DNA from: an uncultured Acidimicrobiales bacterium
GTDB taxonomy: Bacteria > Actinomycetota > Acidimicrobiia > Acidimicrobiales > SZUA-35
DNA length: 64,000 nt
Assembly: GCA_937997485.1 (NCBI GenBank)
Contig: CALKTH010000016.1
Location: 3,669-67,668 of the forward strand
Reading direction: 5' to 3'
The stretch's first letter is position 1. Each line of letters opens with the position of its first letter. Shown here piece after piece: positions 6,550 to 28,782 of this stretch. The notes under the pieces are model-generated. The model did no database searches, was not told where the DNA came from, and saw only the letters and a program-made list of their open reading frames with translations. Position numbers and translations under genes: made by a program.

Positions 6550-8208
6550 TCACAGCAGCACCGCCTCTTCGCCTCGCAGGCGTTCGAGCACCGCAGCAAG
6601 ACACGCAACCGTGGCGCCAATCACCACGCTGAGCGCAAGCGCTTGACCTCGCAGCGCGGCACCCGGTTGGGAGAGCAAGCGGAAGATGGCCAGCGGCGCG
6701 GTAAACGCCGAGGGCGATCGCGAGAGGAATGCTGTGGCCCCGAACTCACCGAGGCTGATGGCGAACGCGAAACCGGAGCCCGTCACAACGGCTCGGCGAA
6801 TCAGCGGCCAATCGATGAGTCGGCTGATGCGGGACGGACGAGCGCCGAGCACTGCGGCGGCCTCGTGCAATCGATCGTCGATCGCACGCAGGGCAGGGAC
6901 CACCGAGGCAAGGACGAACGGCAGCCCGACGACGGCGTGGGCGACAGGAATCAGCCAGGGCGATCGCCGCAGGTCCAGCGCAGTGAATGCCAGCAGGTAC
7001 CCGAATCCGAGCGTGACGGCTGAGACGCCGAGAGGCACCAACGAGATCGCTTCAAGCACGCGCCCGGCTCGGCCGCCGCGGACCACGCCGTAGGCCGCAA
7101 TCACGCCGATGATGCTGGCCAACACCGCGGCGGCCAGGCCGAAGCGCAACGATCGCATCAGCGCCTCGGCGGCCGTCACGGGCAACAAGGGCAAGGGTTC
7201 AAGCAGCGCTCGATAGTGCGTGAGTCCGTACCCACCACCTGTGCGCAAGGACGACTCGATGAGCGCACCAATCGGCACACCGATCACCACACAAGCGAGA
7301 GCGATCACAACGGTGAGATGAGCTCGGCGACCCCACGTGTCGGGGCGCACCGTGCGACGCCGAGCCACGCCTCGTCCTGTATTCACGAACCGTCGCTGAA
7401 AACGGGCGGAGCCCACGGAGAGGAGCACGACGATCGCGAGCTGCACCATCGCCAAGACGGCGGCGACGTCGAATTCCTGGCGAAAGATGGCGTAGCGATG
7501 GATCTCGGTCTCGAGCGTGGCTCGGGCCGGGCCGCCGAGAATGAGGATCACACCGAAGCTCGTGAACGAGAAGAGGAAGACCAGCAGACCAGCGCCCAAC
7601 ACGATGGGAAGCAGAACAGGCAGAGCAACCAGGCGGAAGGCTCGGAAGGGCGTGGCCCCGAGCACCTGAGCGGCCTCGATGTCGCGCCGATCCAACGTCG
7701 CCCAGAAGCCGCCCACGATGCGCACCACAATCGCCACGTTGAAGAACACATGCGCCGCCAGGATCGCCGCGAGCGAACGGTCCAGATCGAGCGCCATCCG
7801 CGTGAACACTGCATCGAGTGCCGCCGCGACCACCACTGTGGGCAGCACGAACGGCACAACAACAAGCGCCCGCACCACTCCCCTGCCCTTGAAGTCGTAT
7901 CGAGCGAGCGCGTGAGCAATCGGCAATCCGACCAGCAGGGTGAGCAGCGCGGAGAGCAACGCCTGCGTGACCGTGAAGGTCAGGACCGAACGAGTTGAGC
8001 TACGAGTCAGGATCTCCAGAACTCGAGCGCCGTCGACGCCACGAAGACTTCGAGAGAAGACCGAGAGCAGGGGCCACACCACCAACGCGCCGAGGAACAG
8101 TGCGGGCACGAGCACGGTGACCACGCGAACCACCGACGAGACAGCGCGGGGCATCATCACGACCCGGCTCCGCACAGAAGCCCGTCGGGTGCGCTGGACA
8201 GCTGCCAC
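6550..8208 (-). CDS. ABC importer permease, fused two-domain type (ThiP/FbpB-like)
   Basis: 552 aa and polytopic, with two repeated MalFG-type halves, each carrying an EAA-like loop (IEAAQVLGATPFRAF; HEAAAVLGARPSRI). Start is uncertain. Confidence 0.88.
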   Translation of the reverse strand: MAAVQRTRRASVRSRVVMMPRAVSSVVRVVTVLVPALFLGALVVWPLLSVFSRSLRGVDGARVLEILTRSSTRSVLTFTVTQALLSALLTLLVGLPIAHALARYDFKGRGVVRALVVVPFVLPTVVVAAALDAVFTRMALDLDRSLAAILAAHVFFNVAIVVRIVGGFWATLDRRDIEAAQVLGATPFRAFRLVALPVLLPIVLGAGLLVFLFSFTSFGVILILGGPARATLETEIHRYAIFRQEFDVAAVLAMVQLAIVVLLSVGSARFQRRFVNTGRGVARRRTVRPDTWGRRAHLTVVIALACVVIGVPIGALIESSLRTGGGYGLTHYRALLEPLPLLPVTAAEALMRSLRFGLAAAVLASIIGVIAAYGVVRGGRAGRVLEAISLVPLGVSAVTLGFGYLLAFTALDLRRSPWLIPVAHAVVGLPFVLASVVPALRAIDDRLHEAAAVLGARPSRISRLIDWPLIRRAVVTGSGFAFAISLGEFGATAFLSRSPSAFTAPLAIFRLLSQPGAALRGQALALSVVIGATVACLAAVLERLRGEEAVLL

Positions 8209-8254
8209 CTCAGAGTCCGGTCAGAGCCGGACTCTGAGGTGGCAGAACGGTGAG

Positions 8255-9433
8255 TCATCGGAGAACGATGTTCGTCCAGCGCTCGGTCCAGTCGAGACGG
8301 CCGGCCTCGATGTCCGCTGGGTCCATCGTGATGGGATTGGCCGTCAGCGGGCCGAACTCCACGAACTCGGGCGGCAGGGCCACCGTCTCATTCGCCGGGT
8401 AGACGAACATGTTCAGCGGGATGTCCGCCTGGAACGTCTCCGAGAGCATGAAGTCGATCAGCTGACCGGCCTCGGCGGGGTGTTCGGTACCAGCGAGAAT
8501 GCCGGCGAACTCGATCTGACGGAAGCAGGAATCCTCGAGCACACCGGTCGGCGGAGCATCCACAGGTGGGTCGGCGAAGATCTTCTCGGCCGGAGGCGAG
8601 GACGCATAGGAGGTCACAAGTGCTCGCTCACCGCCACCGGCAATGAACTCTCCGTAGTAGGCCTCGCTCCAGCCTGAGGTCACCGACATGCCCCCGTCCA
8701 CCAGCTGCTGCCAGTAGTCCTCCCAGCCGTCTTCGCCGTAGCGAACGATGGTGGCCAGCAAGAAGGCGAAGCCCGGCGACGAGGACTCGGGGTTCTCCGT
8801 CACGAAGCTGGCCGCGTTGGCCGGATCAATCAGATCGTCAAGCGACGTCGGCGCATCACCAGGGAGGGCGTCGGTCCAGTAGTTCACACAAACATCACTG
8901 ACGTCGATCGGGGTGACCCGATACTCGGGGTCAAGCTCCAGCTCGTCCGGAACATCAGACAGCGCCGCTGACTGATGGGGAACGAAGAGATCAGCGTCGA
9001 GACCTCGTTGGAGAAAGGTGTTGTCGATGCCGAACATGACGTCGCCCTCGGGCTGCCCAGCGCTGAGCACGGCTCGAGAAACGACCTCGCCGGCATCACC
9101 GGCCGAGAGCAACTCGACGGATATGCCAGTCTCGTCGGTGAAGGTCTGCAAGATGCCCTCGGACACGGCGAAGGAGTCGTGCGTCACGAGCGTGATGGTG
9201 ACCGCTTCGGTCTCCTCCATCGCCTCCTCTTCCACTGTGTCCTCGCCGTCGGCATCAGCGGGCTCCGGCTCTTCGGCTTCGGATTCGGTCTCGGCTGCTG
9301 TGTCGGTCGACGTGTCGCCCTCGGATGAGGAGCTCGCATCGTCGCTGCCGCAGGCGGCTGCCACGAGAGCAAGCGCCATCAGCGTGAGCAAGAAGCGTCG
9401 CATCGAAGACGGAACGGTCGGGTGGTTGAACAT
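8255..9433 (-). CDS. ABC importer substrate-binding lipoprotein, putative thiamine/TPP-related substrate
   Basis: Signal peptide plus lipobox (LVAAAC), then an acidic low-complexity linker and a ThiB/FbpA-like class II SBP body. The start ATG 9433 is preceded by GGGAG that forms the 3' end of the TPP riboswitch. Confidence 0.85.
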   Translation of the reverse strand: MFNHPTVPSSMRRFLLTLMALALVAAACGSDDASSSSEGDTSTDTAAETESEAEEPEPADADGEDTVEEEAMEETEAVTITLVTHDSFAVSEGILQTFTDETGISVELLSAGDAGEVVSRAVLSAGQPEGDVMFGIDNTFLQRGLDADLFVPHQSAALSDVPDELELDPEYRVTPIDVSDVCVNYWTDALPGDAPTSLDDLIDPANAASFVTENPESSSPGFAFLLATIVRYGEDGWEDYWQQLVDGGMSVTSGWSEAYYGEFIAGGGERALVTSYASSPPAEKIFADPPVDAPPTGVLEDSCFRQIEFAGILAGTEHPAEAGQLIDFMLSETFQADIPLNMFVYPANETVALPPEFVEFGPLTANPITMDPADIEAGRLDWTERWTNIVLR

Positions 9434-11944: not shown

Positions 11945-13309
11945 TCAGGCCTTGCGGACAGTTGCCCCATCCGCCGAGTCTTCGATGACCCAGCCATCGG
12001 CGGTCAGCTGATCCCGAATCTCGTCGGCTCGGGCAAAGTCTTTGCCCTTCTTCGCTTCGGTCCGCTCGGCAACAAGCGCCAGAATCTCCGCCGGCACGTC
12101 GTCGCCTCCGCCGATCTCCAACCGGAGGCCGAACGCCTCGCAAATGGCGCGCACGTTGGCACCGATCACGGCGGCCTCAGCTTCGTTCCCGGAATCGAGC
12201 AGCGTGTTTCCCTCACGTACCTGACGGAAAAGAATGTCGACGCCACCCGGCGTGTCGAAGTCGTTGTCCATGACGTCCCGGAACTGCTTGATCAACTCGG
12301 CGTCGGGAGAGACGCCTTCAACGAGTTCTTCGGTGCGGCGTGCGAACGTATCGAGCCGTCCAAGAGCGACACCTCGCTCAACCATCGTCGTGTCTGTCAC
12401 TTCGATCGGAGACCGGTAGTGGCTTTGGAGCACGAGCAATCGGTAGGCGCGAGGGTCGTACTGCTCGGCAAGATCGAGCAGGTTCTTCACGTTGCCCAAC
12501 GACTTGGACATCTTCTCCCCACCCATCTCGACAAAGCCGTTGTGCATCCAGTGGGTGCAGAACGTCTTGCCGTCGGCGATGGCCTGGGCCCGCTCGTTCT
12601 CGTGATGAGGGAAGGTGAGATCGAGTCCACCAGAGTGGATGTCGAACCCCTCACCCAAGAGATCCAAGCTCATCACGACACACTCGGTGTGCCACCCGGG
12701 ACGACCGGCACCCCACGGCGACGGCCACTCGGGCTCGCCCGGCTTGGCCAGCTTCCAAAGCGCGAAGTCGCCTGGATGCTGCTTCTCGTTGCCGACAATG
12801 GCGCGGTCGCCGCCGCCTTCGATCAGCTGATCGAGCGACTGGTGGGCGAGGAGCCCGTAACCGGGAACCTGCTCGACGGAGAGATACACGCCGTCGGACG
12901 TGGCGTACGCCTTGCCCTCATCAACCAGTCGGGCGATGAGCACCACCATTTGCTCCACGTACTCGGTGGCGCGGGGTGTGTGGTCGGGCCGGCGGACATC
13001 AATCATGTCCATCGCCTTCCACCAGATGTTCTCGCACTTCACCGCGATCTCTGCCGGGTCACGACCTTCGGCCGCGCCGCGGTCGATGATCGAGTCATCG
13101 ATGTCGGTGATGTTGGACACGAAGGTGACGTCGAGTCCGGTCCACTCGAGGTACCGACGAACAACGTCGAACACGAGGACCATCCGGCCGTGGCCGATAT
13201 GAGGAGGGGCGTAGACCGTGGGCCCACAGACGTACATGGACACTTTGCCTGGGTCCCGCAGTTCGAGCGGGACCACCTTCTGTTGCGCGGTGTCGTACAG
13301 CCTGATCAT
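11945..13309 (-). CDS. cysS: cysteine--tRNA ligase
   Basis: MYVCGPTVYAPPHIGHGR (HIGH) and KMSKSLGN (KMSKS). Start taken at MIRLYDT. Confidence 0.95.
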   Translation of the reverse strand: MIRLYDTAQQKVVPLELRDPGKVSMYVCGPTVYAPPHIGHGRMVLVFDVVRRYLEWTGLDVTFVSNITDIDDSIIDRGAAEGRDPAEIAVKCENIWWKAMDMIDVRRPDHTPRATEYVEQMVVLIARLVDEGKAYATSDGVYLSVEQVPGYGLLAHQSLDQLIEGGGDRAIVGNEKQHPGDFALWKLAKPGEPEWPSPWGAGRPGWHTECVVMSLDLLGEGFDIHSGGLDLTFPHHENERAQAIADGKTFCTHWMHNGFVEMGGEKMSKSLGNVKNLLDLAEQYDPRAYRLLVLQSHYRSPIEVTDTTMVERGVALGRLDTFARRTEELVEGVSPDAELIKQFRDVMDNDFDTPGGVDILFRQVREGNTLLDSGNEAEAAVIGANVRAICEAFGLRLEIGGGDDVPAEILALVAERTEAKKGKDFARADEIRDQLTADGWVIEDSADGATVRKA

Positions 13310-19365: not shown

Positions 19366-19403
19366 CTGGTAGGTAGTGGGGGTCAGACACCAGATTCCTC
19401 CAG
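19366..19403. repeat. REP element copy E
   Basis: CTGGTAGGTAGTGGGGGTCAGACACCAGATTCCTCCAG. Confidence 0.75.
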
Positions 19404-23300: not shown

Positions 23301-23990
23301 ATGACGTCCGACGCTCCCACCTCGAACACGAACGAAGTCAACCTCTACGACGCGATGAGCACGCTTCGTGCCGTCCGCCGTCTCAAGCCCGATCCCATTC
23401 CGGCAGACGCCTTGGAGCGTGTCCTCCAGGCCGCTTGTTGGGCACCAACCGGTGGCAACCAACAACCGTGGCGCGTCATTGTGGTGACCGATCCCGAGCG
23501 AAAGGCGGCGTTGCAAGCCATCTACGCTCCGGAGTGGGCAACGTATGTGGCCAACTTTCGAGAGCGGATCAAGGGCCAGCCGGACGAAGACAAGTGGTTG
23601 CGAACCGGCAAGGCCGGCGACTACCTGGCGGATCATCTGCACGAGGCCCCAGCACTCCTCGTGTTCTGCGCCGATCCTCGCCGCATGGCCATCACCGACG
23701 CCGGGCTCGATCGGGTCAGCATGGTGGGTGGGGGCTCGGTCTATCCAGCCGTCCAAAACGCCATGCTCGCCTGCGTCGCCGAGGGGCTCGGTTGCGCACT
23801 TACCACGCTGCACTGCTTGCGGGAACCCGACGTGAAAGCCGTCCTCGAGATTCCCGACGAGTGGGCCACGGTTGCGCTGCTGCCGATCGGATACGCCGTC
23901 GGCCGCGGGCACGGACCCATCACCCGCAAGCCTCCAGCGGAGATGGCCTTCACCAACACGTTCGGCGCGCCGTACTCCTCGGAGTCCTGA
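23301..23990 (+). CDS. nitroreductase family protein
   Basis: RAVRRLKPDPIP...ACWAPTGGNQQPWRVIVV is the typical nitroreductase N-terminal FMN-binding pattern. Confidence 0.85.
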   Translation: MTSDAPTSNTNEVNLYDAMSTLRAVRRLKPDPIPADALERVLQAACWAPTGGNQQPWRVIVVTDPERKAALQAIYAPEWATYVANFRERIKGQPDEDKWLRTGKAGDYLADHLHEAPALLVFCADPRRMAITDAGLDRVSMVGGGSVYPAVQNAMLACVAEGLGCALTTLHCLREPDVKAVLEIPDEWATVALLPIGYAVGRGHGPITRKPPAEMAFTNTFGAPYSSES

Positions 23991-24014
23991 TGTCCCCGAG
24001 GGACATTTATTTGT
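23990..24014 (+). terminator. intrinsic terminator
   Basis: ATGTCCC-cga-GGGACAT followed by TTATTTGT, starting at the stop codon of the nitroreductase gene. Confidence 0.6.
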
Positions 24015-24037
24015 CAGTCGGCTAACGTTTCGCTGCA

Positions 24038-25645
24038 GTGAACGCCACCGCCGCAGGAAGTAGCTCGATTCAGCGCGACGAGATTCTGCAATGGACGCTG
24101 CCCCGGCTCCGGCGTGTGCTCGGCGACCGGGTCCTGCAGCCGCACGATCTCCATGCTGTTCACCAACGAGCAGAGCAGATCCATGGCGGGCCGCTCCCCC
24201 ACCCGTCCGCGGTGTGGCCTGATGAGCCCACGTTCGCCGCCGATGTCATTCGATGGACGGCCCGAGTCCCGCTTCCCGTTCTCACCACCGAGGACCTGGG
24301 CGGCGTCGAGGCGTTGATTCGAGGGAACCACGACGACGCTCAGCTGACGCGATTCGAGCGCCTGCGCAACATCGTCCGGGCGGCTGCGCACGTCCCGTCC
24401 CAGCAGGCGACGACGGTCTCGGAGGCCTACCAGCGACGAATCGCGCTGAACACCATTGCTCTCTCGCTCGCCACGGGTGACCACGAGCGACGGAACCTCA
24501 TAGCGAAGAGTCTGCGCGACTCGTACGAGACGGGTCGAGCCTCAACCAGCCGTCTCTACCGCGCAGGAGCGGCCGGCGCAGGCCTCGTTCCCAACCGCTC
24601 CCTCTTCCCGCGAGGAGCGGCAGGCGAGGCTCTCGCCTTCGACCTCATGGCGACCACGGTCAGCCTTGCCTTGGAGGCGTCCATGCTGCGCGGCGACCTC
24701 GACCCCGCCACACAGGCGATCTCACTCCCAAGCGGGCCCGATGGAAAGTGGGAGGAATGGACGCCAGTTTCGCTCGTGACTCAAGCGCAGATGCACTCAC
24801 TCCTCGAACCGGGCGAGTTGGCGGATCCCGGGCACAGCGAGCTTCTTGATCGAAGAGCGCTACCGACCCATGGGGGCAGTCTCTCGACAGACGAATTCGA
24901 GGCCCTGATGCGAGCAGGCCATGACGAGATCATTCTCTCTGCGCACGAGAGTTTCGTCGGGCCGCACGCAGCCCGGCTCATCGACCTGCACCTCGCTCCA
25001 CGAGCCAAAGAGATTCATGCGCTGTGGGAAACACCTCTCGAGTTCTTCGAGGCACTCGTGAGCCACACCGCTGCGTCGTTCTGGCTCGACGGCCCTGGCT
25101 TCGAGTTGGCCGCCGCGAACCCAGCGTTCGAGGCACTCCCAGCCCCAAATGCGCCGGGCCGCAGCGACGCCGTTCGAGAGATCTGCCGGACCCTCGGCGG
25201 GTTGGATCTCGGTGAGCCGCCGAACAGCGAGGCGTTCAACTCATGGCTTCCGCTCGCCGTGTACGCGACGACTCCTCGTCCCCTTGATCCGTTGGGCGGA
25301 CCGAACGGAACCCAACTCCTCGTTCGCCGGGTGCTGGAAGATGCTCTCGTCAACCGACGAATCATGACCGTCCCCGTGATTCGGGCGGGCGCTGAGGTGT
25401 GCCGCCTCAGGCCACGCCAGGCGCTCTTCGGTGACCTCCCCGAGGCACAGGATCTCGCAGCAGAACTCTTCGCCGTCGTGTTCGCGATAGGCATCGAGGG
25501 ACTCCTTCTTCGAGGGCTGTTCGACCCCATGTGCACCCGGCACCAGCTGCCTACCGGAGCGAGCGGGAGCGATGCGCGTTGGGGACTCCCAAGCCTGACG
25601 GCGTACACGCTGATGAACTTCTTCTACGAAGACGACGCGAGCTGA
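24038..25645 (+). CDS. hypothetical protein, paralog 1 of a tandem pair (no recognisable domain)
   Basis: 535-aa ORF with coding-like codon usage. It is clearly alignable to the next gene and is internally duplicated (aa about 183-258 versus 456-535). GTG start is uncertain. Confidence 0.65.
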   Translation: MNATAAGSSSIQRDEILQWTLPRLRRVLGDRVLQPHDLHAVHQRAEQIHGGPLPHPSAVWPDEPTFAADVIRWTARVPLPVLTTEDLGGVEALIRGNHDDAQLTRFERLRNIVRAAAHVPSQQATTVSEAYQRRIALNTIALSLATGDHERRNLIAKSLRDSYETGRASTSRLYRAGAAGAGLVPNRSLFPRGAAGEALAFDLMATTVSLALEASMLRGDLDPATQAISLPSGPDGKWEEWTPVSLVTQAQMHSLLEPGELADPGHSELLDRRALPTHGGSLSTDEFEALMRAGHDEIILSAHESFVGPHAARLIDLHLAPRAKEIHALWETPLEFFEALVSHTAASFWLDGPGFELAAANPAFEALPAPNAPGRSDAVREICRTLGGLDLGEPPNSEAFNSWLPLAVYATTPRPLDPLGGPNGTQLLVRRVLEDALVNRRIMTVPVIRAGAEVCRLRPRQALFGDLPEAQDLAAELFAVVFAIGIEGLLLRGLFDPMCTRHQLPTGASGSDARWGLPSLTAYTLMNFFYEDDAS

Positions 25646-25653
25646 TGGGACAA

Positions 25654-25669
25654 GCAGCAATATTGCTGC
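25654..25669. promoter_or_regulatory. perfect 16-nt palindrome GCAGCAATATTGCTGC between the paralogs (operator or hairpin; function unknown)
   Basis: Exact palindrome 9 nt after the paralog-1 stop and about 68 nt before the paralog-2 ATG, with an unusually AT-rich centre for this genome. Confidence 0.3.
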
Positions 25670-25736
25670 CTAGGATCGTCAATTCCTGCTGATCTAAGCT
25701 CCGGAATCCCGGTCCTCAATCGCGTCGTCTCTCCCC

Positions 25737-27425
25737 ATGCCTCTCTCCCAAACCTCGCTCCCCGCAACTCCAGCGTCTGTCGCAAACATCTCGGCGGAGG
25801 ACGATGGACCGTTCGAGTCCGTCCTCATGCTCGGACTCGGGCAGATGTATGGGCAGGTTGGGTCAAACCTCGCCCTGCCGTCGCTGGAAGAGCTCGACGC
25901 AGCATCGCCGGTGCCTGGCGCCGGATCGCTCCTTTGGGCGAGCAACGAAGAACTCGTCGCCGAAGTCGCCGATCACCTGTGTTTCTCGCCGAGTCCGGAC
26001 TACTCGGCCGACGATCTCGCGCTGCTGCAGATGGTGTTCGACCCCGAGTCCAGCGAAGAGGCTCGCCGTCGAGCCGTGAGAGACCTCGGTCGGATGACCG
26101 GTCGGACGAGCGCCGCCGACGATGGCCTGCGAGCGCTCTACGAGCGACGTCGTTTCGCTGCAACGCTGGTGTCCAGCTTCGGCTTGGCCTCCACCGCATT
26201 CGGCGAACACATCTCGAAGAAGCTCGAAGACAACTTCGTAAGAGCTCGTCGGGGCAACGAATTGCTCTACGAGGCCTTGGGTCGCGGCTCCCGCCTCGGT
26301 CCAGACCCTGCGCTGTTCGGCCCCGGTGGCACCCATATTCGAGCTGGCCTCCCCTCGATACCGGAGTTGCTGAGCGTCGGCATGGGCTTGGTCTACGAAG
26401 GGCTCGATCTACGCCGGGGCATCGAGCCGCTGTGGCCCACCGTCTACCTCCCATCGGGCCCGAACGGCGACGTGGAAGACTGGGCGCTCGCCGCGATTGC
26501 ATTCGACGCATTCCACCGCTTTCTCACCGTCGACACGGCCAACAACGATCCCGCTCAGGAAAGTGATTTCGGCCTCCTTCTCGACTCTGCGGCGTTCGAT
26601 GAGACCGAGAGCTCGCCGATTCCACCGATTCCGGGCGAACCCCGCCGTCTCACCGAGGCAGCGGGCCTGCGACGCAAGCTTCTCGACGTCGCCGTCGGTC
26701 AGCTCCGGGCCTCTGCCTGCAACTCGCTGGCCGAAGGACCTGACTACGCCTTCTTGCAGACGCAAGCAGCCCTCCGAGACATCGACCCCTCGATGGTGGC
26801 GGGAGATCCGCGCGATTTCCTCACCATGGCAGCGCTCGCTGCATGCAGCGACGACGGCATCGCTTGGGACGAGACGAGACAGCAAACGCTCGAAGACTCG
26901 ATCGATGCGATCATCGAGGGCTGGCCGGAAGAAGAGCGTGCGCTCGGGGTTCAGGAACTGGGACGAGTCTTCGGAAGCTTGATCCCGAACAATCGCCGGC
27001 GCCAACGCCGTATGGCCCGCCGTTTGCCGTTCTTCTGCAGCGTGGGCGCTTCCGGCGTAGCTGAATCGCCGGCAGACGAGCTCGACCTCGCGGCGGTCCG
27101 CCTTCGCCAGACATGCGAAGACGCCTATCGGAGTGCGACGCAGCACATCGCCCTCGTGATACGCCACACCACGCAGCGACTCGGGCTGCGGCCAACCCGA
27201 GCGATGTTCGGCAGCGAGCCGGATGCTGTGGTGTTGGCGAGCGAAATCTATGCCGTGATCTACCACTCCGTCGCTGAGGGAATCGCGTTCCGCGAACGGT
27301 TCGATCCCATGTGCCAGCTCTTCGAGCTGGCCTCGGGCCCGGACAACGAATTGCGTCGTTGGGACTTCGCTGCCCTCATCTCGAGTGCGATGTTGGCCAG
27401 CCTCTACGAGCCAGCTGAATCCTGA
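25737..27425 (+). CDS. hypothetical protein, paralog 2 of a tandem pair (no recognisable domain)
   Basis: 562-aa ORF. It shares with paralog 1 the blocks Y(Q/E)RR...L(R/E)D(S/N)(Y/F)...LY(R/E)A, LPSGP(D/N)G...W and the C-terminal RP..A(L/M)FG...A.E(L/I)(F/Y)AV(V/I)...EG..(L/F)R..FDPMC. Confidence 0.65.
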   Translation: MPLSQTSLPATPASVANISAEDDGPFESVLMLGLGQMYGQVGSNLALPSLEELDAASPVPGAGSLLWASNEELVAEVADHLCFSPSPDYSADDLALLQMVFDPESSEEARRRAVRDLGRMTGRTSAADDGLRALYERRRFAATLVSSFGLASTAFGEHISKKLEDNFVRARRGNELLYEALGRGSRLGPDPALFGPGGTHIRAGLPSIPELLSVGMGLVYEGLDLRRGIEPLWPTVYLPSGPNGDVEDWALAAIAFDAFHRFLTVDTANNDPAQESDFGLLLDSAAFDETESSPIPPIPGEPRRLTEAAGLRRKLLDVAVGQLRASACNSLAEGPDYAFLQTQAALRDIDPSMVAGDPRDFLTMAALAACSDDGIAWDETRQQTLEDSIDAIIEGWPEEERALGVQELGRVFGSLIPNNRRRQRRMARRLPFFCSVGASGVAESPADELDLAAVRLRQTCEDAYRSATQHIALVIRHTTQRLGLRPTRAMFGSEPDAVVLASEIYAVIYHSVAEGIAFRERFDPMCQLFELASGPDNELRRWDFAALISSAMLASLYEPAES

Positions 27426-28503: not shown

Positions 28504-28782
28504 CTAGAGAGGTCCTTCGGAGTCGGGTATGACAGTGATGACGAGTCGGCCGTCGGCATTCACCTCGGCGTTGAAACGGGGACGCTCACCGCTGATGACC
28601 GTGGCGGTCCCGTCGGCCGATGCTGAGATCTCGTAGTGCGGGCCGACGAGTTCCACGATGGTTGGAGCCACACGCTCGAGGTGGTCGACAACACCGGCGT
28701 ACCGGTCCATGTCGAATGCATCAAGGTCGAGTTCGACCCAATCCTGATGTCCGAGGCCGGGAAACGTCACCGGACCAGTCAA
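28504..28782 (-). CDS. hypothetical small protein
   Basis: 92-aa ORF whose stop abuts the MBL start (28504/28503). No recognisable motif. Confidence 0.45.
   Translation of the reverse strand: MTGPVTFPGLGHQDWVELDLDAFDMDRYAGVVDHLERVAPTIVELVGPHYEISASADGTATVISGERPRFNAEVNADGRLVITVIPDSEGPL

Follow-up and report, generated by a model that had tools for sequence, protein, structure and literature searches.

A tandem pair of two-unit proteins from a divergent branch of the TetR superfamily in an uncultured Acidimicrobiales bacterium

TetR-family regulators (TFRs) rank with the commonest transcription factors of bacteria, and synthetic biology makes wide use of them. To our knowledge, natural single-chain double TFRs are represented by one solved example, Mce3R. 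This 406-aa protein of Mycobacterium tuberculosis forms an intramolecular, asymmetric pseudo-dimer through a four-helix bundle, carries two functional helix-turn-helix (HTH) motifs and binds a non-palindromic operator; its halves belong to distinct TFR subgroups, joined as a fusion, and 204 double TFRs are predicted in actinomycetes (PMC11667970). Another protein, COQ9, has kept the TFR fold, and DNA binding is not predicted for it (PMC9774615). Here we analyse P1 and P2, two tandem genes (and their products) located in a 64,000-nt stretch of DNA from an uncultured Acidimicrobiales bacterium (contig CALKTH010000016.1, positions 3,669 to 67,668 of the forward strand), called hereafter the window. 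They had been singled out earlier, in what we call the original prediction, as large paralogs built from an unrecognised module, and the sole name found for the proteins in public records is "hypothetical protein". We find that fold and transitive homology place P1 and P2 in the TetR superfamily, although they lack the HTH signature that defines it. They are an unusual offshoot of a very well known regulator family, and no new kind of protein.

Two paralogous genes, four copies of one unit

The original prediction described two consecutive, homologous genes on the + strand, encoding 535 and 562 aa, and this was borne out (Table 1). BLASTP between P1 and P2 yielded four significant high-scoring segment pairs. 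The best one joined the two C-termini (E 2e-15) and the next one the two N-halves (6e-11), whereas the last two were cross-matches between a mid-protein region and a C-terminus (2e-10 and 4e-6). Overall identity was 26% in the pairwise alignment, in which every shared motif block listed by the prediction was present. Four metagenome contigs from public assemblies, whose identity to the window is 99.65-99.95%, carry the same two gene calls. The G+C content is 63-67% throughout the window, and its value at third codon positions (GC3) is 0.74 for P1 and P2, for 0.70-0.84 in the neighbours. P1 and P2 are therefore native coding genes, and no spurious open reading frames (ORFs).

Comparison of the halves revealed a repetition that extends over the whole of each protein. 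The N-half of P1 matched its C-half with an E-value of 2.4e-11 over 135 aa, the alignment of the N-half of P2 with the C-half of P1 spanned 255 aa, and all four halves could be aligned end to end. When N-halves were compared with C-halves at the profile level (hhalign), the match had a probability of 97.7% and an E-value of 1.8e-12 over 205 columns. Because the halves align across their full length and the profiles match, the locus is made of four copies of a unit of about 265 aa, and a whole-unit tandem duplication is present inside each protein. The family hidden Markov model (HMM) gave two domain matches in P1 and two in P2, and no further family member was found with it in the window.

The order of internal and gene duplication was addressed by a neighbour-joining (NJ) tree of half-units with bootstrap. 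Neither N-halves nor C-halves were monophyletic, the subfamily clade had 66% support, and the branching order was left unresolved. Both hhalign and the tree indicate that N and C units are mutual relatives within one subfamily, which points to internal duplication.

The repeat of the original prediction was a module of 75-80 aa, found at mid-protein and at the C-terminus of each protein. It is real and does occur in four copies, but the true repeat is the larger, 265-aa unit. Nor is the module an unrecognised novelty: transitive profile homology and fold, reported below, identify it as the C-terminal core of a divergent TetR-family unit. It consists of the alpha8-alpha9 core of the TetR C-terminal domain, followed by a family-specific LPxGPxG...W hairpin.

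Homology to TetR regulators and loss of the HTH signature

Direct searches of the libraries with P1 and P2 gave no match in Pfam, NCBIfam or PADLOC, and nothing significant among PDB sequences. The TetR_N model (PF00440) matched neither protein even at E<=1, and no sequence-level match to a PDB TetR chain was obtained with either. When P1, P2 and a 7-sequence alignment were run against 5.8 billion proteins in a word-indexed search, self was all that came back, a result made uninformative by the saturation of the candidate list. P1 was not present in any GTDB species representative, and all members of the P1/P2 branch known so far come from metagenome assemblies. A role in defence was also considered and rejected: no PADLOC defence-system protein family matched either protein at E<=1, and searches for plasmid or phage homologs were negative.

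Relatives were collected by an exhaustive hmmsearch with a four-unit profile against 1.84 billion representatives (E<=1e-3). This gave 88 proteins, most of them 250-300 aa long and matching one full unit; the unit is therefore a real, free-standing domain. Five two-unit proteins (P0003-P0007, 485-539 aa) are close to P1 and P2, and the 14 units of these seven proteins were used as the subfamily profile. The other two-unit relatives, P0012, P0032, P0039 and P0069, belong to other branches of the family, and each of their halves has kept its HTH intact. A separate clade (100% support) unites the four halves of P0032 and P0039, so that unit duplication and fusion seems to have happened more than once in the family.

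The link to TetR runs through these relatives. In the alignment, the N-terminal segment of the single-unit relatives reads as a TetR HTH. P0058 exceeds the Pfam gathering score of TetR_N (25.7 versus 24), and P0032 (32.4) and P0039 (35.1) exceed that of TetR_C_6 (27). Matches to NCBIfam among the relatives were MtrR, AcuR, CurR, AcrR and DicD; CurR is labelled TetR-family in the output, and the other four we take to be TetR-type repressors. Three PDB entries were matched by the family profile at the N-terminal segment: 3aqs, which is labelled TetR family, and 2zb9 and 8zf2 (HapR), presumably TetR-type regulators as well. The 14-unit subfamily profile in turn matched the TetR-positive relatives with a probability of 99.1% (hhalign, E 1.8e-18), over 229 columns that include the HTH-equivalent region. 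Homology of the C-domain of the P1 and P2 units to a TetR_C family was found indirectly, through the TetR_C_6-positive P0032 and P0039. By coordinate transfer through the alignments, the region in which TetR_C_6 matches these two relatives is that of module copy 1 of P1.

One single-unit relative, P0010 (266 aa), retains the HTH and is encoded divergently from a DUF2855 gene, 90 bp apart (L013, 3825-5801). Divergence from a neighbour is the classic arrangement of a TetR regulator and its target, and this suggests that the wider family consists of ordinary regulators.

Structure prediction was performed with AlphaFold2 (AF2). The model of P1 unit 1, obtained with 48 sequences, had a predicted local distance difference test score (pLDDT) of 85.9 and a predicted template modelling score (pTM) of 0.80. 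When it was compared with the PDB by Foldseek, 47 of the 50 top matches were TetR-family regulators, as judged from the entry descriptions. They included 4nel and 4jnn (prob 1.00), SlmA, HapR, FasR, EilR, AcrR, KstR, EthR and 3kkd, with target-normalised TM scores of 0.43-0.61, the top value being that of 3kkd. The overall TFR fold was thus recovered for the P1 unit 1 model, at modest E-values. Each unit is predicted to consist of an N-terminal three-helix segment, an all-alpha C-terminal domain of the ligand-binding/dimerisation type and a small beta element, which is specific to the family and built from the GL(R/x)P, LPxGPxG and W motifs. Full-length P1 was modelled as all-alpha with small beta elements (pLDDT 80.2, pTM 0.84). 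The latter score would imply a defined arrangement of the two units; Mce3R was not among the top 50 Foldseek matches of the full-length model.

The N-terminal segments were inspected for the HTH. No TetR_N-type HTH was recognised in P1 or P2, and its signature residues are missing in all 14 subfamily units, where the "G(L/I)" after alpha1 and the "S-A-A-Y-(K/R)-I-W" recognition helix have given way to a short "DPxxxW/F". Both segments of P1 and both of P2 lack the motif, although a double TFR is expected to carry two per chain, at a distance that lets them reach successive major grooves. The net charge of the 60-aa segment is +1, -3, -7 and 0 in the four P1/P2 units; in the single-unit relatives its mean is +1.8, with 9 Lys/Arg. 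Within the subfamily, identity is 10-17% in the N-domain versus 25-28% in the C-domain, and the HTH-equivalent segment is the least conserved part. The single-unit relatives exhibit the reverse pattern, with 34.5% in the N-domain versus 24.8% in the C-domain. The most conserved columns of the family are, in P1 numbering, E213, G214, R218, P223, L230, G233 and W241.

Therefore, of the claim that P1 and P2 form an undescribed family, one part stands, namely that no curated model or annotation covers them, but profile and fold place them in the TetR superfamily. The original prediction had named, as the finding that would speak against it, that an HMM or a structure confidently match a known family; at the superfamily level such a match was reached, after profile and structure work.

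On these grounds we lean towards seeing P1 and P2 as a small, fast-evolving branch of the TetR superfamily, made of two-unit pseudo-dimers that are most likely no longer canonical operator-binding repressors. Since the HTH segments are degenerate, neutral to acidic and poorly conserved, and the C-terminal core is conserved, canonical operator binding has most likely been lost; as far as sequence features can tell, they argue against the canonical scheme of operator binding released by a ligand. Given the pTM of 0.84 and the precedent of Mce3R, the two units of a chain would pack via the long alpha8 and alpha9 helices into an intramolecular pseudo-dimer, as in that double TFR. P1 and P2 could each act as monomers, and with each chain a self-contained pseudo-dimer the heterodimer once proposed for them would become unnecessary. 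Strong conservation is restricted to the C-terminal helices and the beta hairpin, so that the proteins probably act through ligand binding. They may work through the conserved core, binding or sensing a small molecule, with an output other than classical DNA binding, in analogy to COQ9. An ancestral single two-unit gene would have been duplicated in one lineage to give the tandem P1/P2 pair.

Table 1. Position of the genes, units, module copies and putative signals in the window (aa, amino acids; pI, isoelectric point).
Feature	Position	Strand	Description
P1	24038..25645	+	535 aa, GTG start, pI 5.5; ORF and gene call; two fused TetR-like units in one chain
P2	25737..27425	+	562 aa, ATG start, pI 4.6; P1 paralog, two-unit architecture as in P1
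P1 unit 1 (aa 1-270)	24038..24847	+	AF2 pLDDT 85.9; Foldseek TetR-family matches
P1 unit 2 (aa 271-535)	24848..25642	+	End-to-end alignment with unit 1; same helix order in full-length model
P2 unit 1 (aa 1-280)	25737..26576	+	HTH-equivalent segment without Lys/Arg, net charge -7
P2 unit 2 (aa 281-562)	26577..27422	+	Alignment of halves, hhalign
P1 unit 1 HTH-equivalent segment (aa ~35-60; helices 35-49, 56-59)	24140..24217	+	DSSP of models; canonical TetR recognition-helix signature missing
Module copy 1 (P1 aa 183-241)	24584..24760	+	End of alpha8, alpha9 with E-G-x-x-L-R, D-P, then L-P-x-G-P-x-G...W hairpin
Module copy 2 (P1 aa 457-515)	25406..25582	+	BLASTP and half-unit alignment
Module copy 3 (P2 aa 184-249)	26286..26483	+	BLASTP and half-unit alignment
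Module copy 4 (P2 aa 484-542)	27186..27362	+	BLASTP and half-unit alignment
Hairpin and T-rich tail	23989..24017 (hairpin 23989-24007)	+	8 pairs, 4 of them G-C; overlaps nitroreductase stop codon
Perfect 16-nt palindrome GCAGCAATATTGCTGC	25654..25669	+	In the 91-nt P1-P2 spacer

Gene order, variation and signals around the pair

The syntenic order at the locus is SerB and nitroreductase, then the family gene, then a metallo-beta-lactamase (MBL)-fold protein with a WHD, a small ORF, a 4HBT thioesterase and a CoA-transferase. Three other lineages carry a single two-unit gene at this site: L009, L011 and L005, the last from the Acidimicrobiales metagenome-assembled genome (MAG) to which P0003 was traced. 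The nitroreductase gene overlaps the family gene by 4 nt in L009 and is separated from it by 11 nt in L011. Apart from the small ORF, the flanking proteins of these three loci are 62-81% identical to their counterparts in the window. P1 and P2 share 23-27% identity with P0003-P0005, which are 32-35% identical among themselves.

Loci with an orthologous nitroreductase (66-78% identity) were also inspected in metagenomes. None of the 80 contains a family member. Four of them also have the MBL gene downstream, and there the slot is occupied by an S49 peptidase, a CBS-domain or a CMD-family gene. Since these sister lineages keep nitroreductase and MBL without the family gene, the latter is not an obligatory regulator of the two. 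A functional coupling to the nitroreductase and MBL neighbours, considered as a candidate, is weakened by the 80 loci without a member and by the unrelated genes in the slot. The multi-gene "system" of the original prediction finds no support, as related genomes have a single copy at the site and sister lineages unrelated genes. Many of the nitroreductase contigs (L016-L095) are titled "marine metagenome". In most of those with 7 kb of downstream sequence, the MBL/thioesterase block was not within these 7 kb; the gene order of the window is therefore confined to a subclade.

The family ORFs are intact in at least five lineages, with lengths of 485-562 aa and co-linear conserved motifs. Between near-identical contigs, P1 variants comprised five synonymous and no non-synonymous changes and P2 variants four and three, a total of nine to three; these single-nucleotide polymorphisms (SNPs) are few, and the count for P1 depends in part on a look-up of the exact protein, though the 90% cluster of P1 has no other member. 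P1 and P2 are real genes still under selection.

The metagenome samples of the window contain a second pair of subfamily members, P0007 (485 aa) and P0006 (506 aa), which share 30% identity. Their genes lie on one strand at 6871-8328 and 9330-10850 of L006 (also in L007 and L008), and are separated by a DMRL-synthase gene on the - strand and a MerR-family regulator gene on the + strand. This second pair suggests repeated local duplication of these genes.

Two further observations concern the flanks. The small ORF between the MBL-fold and 4HBT genes (28504-28782, - strand; 92 aa from stop to start, called as 88 aa) has no Pfam match. Its position is conserved in L005, L009 and L011, and with 47-56% identity between these loci and the window it evolves faster than its neighbours. 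Contig c_000001337796 of ERZ6864208 (L002) matches the window at 99.65% identity between window positions 19372 and 27950. Past this point, which falls inside the MBL-fold gene, there is no similarity at the megablast level, and the contig continues with syntenic, divergent MBL, 88-aa ORF and 4HBT genes, and beyond 4HBT with an extra MFS transporter and a 317-aa ORF. Either two related strains were assembled into a chimera, or the break marks a site of recombination.

A clean terminator ahead of P1 and a perfect palindrome between the genes had been taken to mean that the pair forms its own unit. The hairpin with its T-rich tail exists, and is a possible weak terminator or attenuator, but it is not significant: terminator-like sites are not enriched in the window (2 found versus 2.8 expected), and with z = -0.78 the stability of the local fold is unremarkable. 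The palindrome exists as well; it is unique in sequence and forms a 6-bp hairpin with no T-tract after it. However, it is not significant: perfect palindromes of 16 nt number six in the window. The five others are at 12819, 16506, 17402, 26836 and 47121, the one at 26836 (TCGCTGCATGCAGCGA) being within P2; under a uniform-base model, about one is expected in 64 kb. No sigma-70-like promoter was predicted, and Rfam gave no match in the window. The own-unit argument is therefore without statistical support, and terminator and palindrome were rejected as evidence of an autonomous unit or of an operator.

Competing explanations and comparison with known systems

Several points weigh against the view that P1 and P2 are TetR-type pseudo-dimers which have lost operator binding. 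The TetR assignment is transitive, P1 and P2 themselves matching no curated model. Foldseek E-values of the unit 1 model are modest (0.02-2), with query-normalised TM scores of 0.3-0.5 and root mean square deviations of 6-9 Å, and the full-length P1 model retrieved from the PDB only generic alpha-solenoid and transporter noise. The three-helix segment is kept in all 14 units and confidently modelled, and six Arg remain in that of P1 unit 1. Relatives with a retained HTH are also acidic overall (mean pI 5.1), a perfect palindrome is located just upstream of P2, and the loss of DNA binding is read from the sequences alone.

A bolder reading, to which we give somewhat less than an even chance, is that DNA binding has been wholly given up by a TetR-fold pseudo-dimer whose core and LPxGPxG...W hairpin serve a new, rapidly diversifying role, making it a prokaryotic counterpart of COQ9. 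Candidate roles would be to bind, sequester or present a small molecule, or to regulate a protein partner. Such a protein would occupy a variable slot in an uncultured lineage related to the Acidimicrobiales MAG, and would have been recently duplicated there.

The main alternative, though a less likely one, is that P1 and P2 are still transcription factors, Mce3R-like double-TFR repressors that read an asymmetric or unusual operator with their divergent three-helix segments. Responding to a ligand, they would control their own genes and/or the neighbouring nitroreductase or MBL/thioesterase genes. The retention of that segment in 14 of 14 units, well modelled, fits this proposal, but the recognition-helix signature is gone, the segments are acidic or neutral (Lys and Arg are missing from that of P2 unit 1), and the N-domain is the least conserved part, opposite to the DNA-binding relatives. 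Other members of the family do look like ordinary TFRs, such as P0010 with its DUF2855 neighbour, and the HTH is intact in P0012, P0032, P0039 and P0069. An operon with the nitroreductase gene is suggested by the relatives in which the family gene abuts or overlaps it; against the proposal, nitroreductase and MBL genes are kept in sister lineages without the family gene. The palindrome of the P1-P2 spacer could be an operator, but is statistically ordinary. Double TFRs can also bind non-palindromic DNA, as Mce3R shows (PMC11667970).

That P1 and P2 are functionless relics, former TetR-type genes drifting, with selection relaxed, in a variable slot and kept open by the scarcity of stop codons at 64% GC, is improbable. 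Identity to the syntenic counterparts is low (23-27%, versus 62-81% for most flanks), the distribution is patchy with other genes in the slot of sister lineages, the HTH is degenerate and no function can be assigned, all of which would suit decay. However, intact ORFs of 485-562 aa with co-linear conserved motifs are found in every lineage, conservation of the C-terminal core equals that in functional relatives, AF2 models are confident, GC3 is native, SNPs are biased to synonymous changes (9 to 3), and a duplicated copy has been retained. Least credible of all, and already largely refuted, is a new family or two-gene system unrelated to known folds, with a P1/P2 heterodimer of novel activity: it would account for the missing direct matches in Pfam, NCBIfam, PADLOC and PDB sequences and for the empty full-length Foldseek search, but profile, profile-profile and fold evidence converge on TetR, and relatives have a single gene.

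If P1 and P2 are indeed pseudo-dimers with decayed HTHs and a conserved ligand core, they would show that the double-TFR repressor scaffold can be recycled beyond DNA binding, and the TetR clan would be enlarged by a family not yet curated, of which 88 representatives can be detected. The case also illustrates that profile and fold methods are able to place "orphan" proteins of uncultured Actinomycetota. A ligand or partner would have to be known before the pair gains much practical value.

Compared with canonical TFRs (PF00440 TetR_N followed by PF13977 TetR_C_6, a BetI-type C-domain), P1 and P2 share the succession of a three-helix N-domain and an all-alpha C-domain with two long helices; homology is traceable via relatives that pass the Pfam thresholds, and the structural neighbours are TFRs. 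In contrast to them, P1 and P2 match neither Pfam model, have units about 70 aa longer, and have lost the HTH signature. It is the C-domain, and not the HTH, in which their conservation is concentrated, and dimerisation has presumably been replaced by packing within the chain. The likeness to COQ9, which binds lipids, would be one of functional analogy, a TetR fold working through its ligand pocket. COQ9 is eukaryotic, mitochondrial, and a homodimer of single units, and the likeness is claimed for the superfamily fold alone.

Mce3R has in common with P1 and P2 the presence of two TetR-family units in one polypeptide and an actinobacterial setting, and the pTM of the P1 model would be compatible with its pseudo-dimer arrangement. 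In contrast to its fused, distinct subgroups, the units of P1 and P2 are paralogous to each other, the product of an internal duplication. They also differ from Mce3R by their length of about 265 aa and their family-specific beta hairpin, and, where Mce3R has two functional HTHs, by segments that are degenerate.

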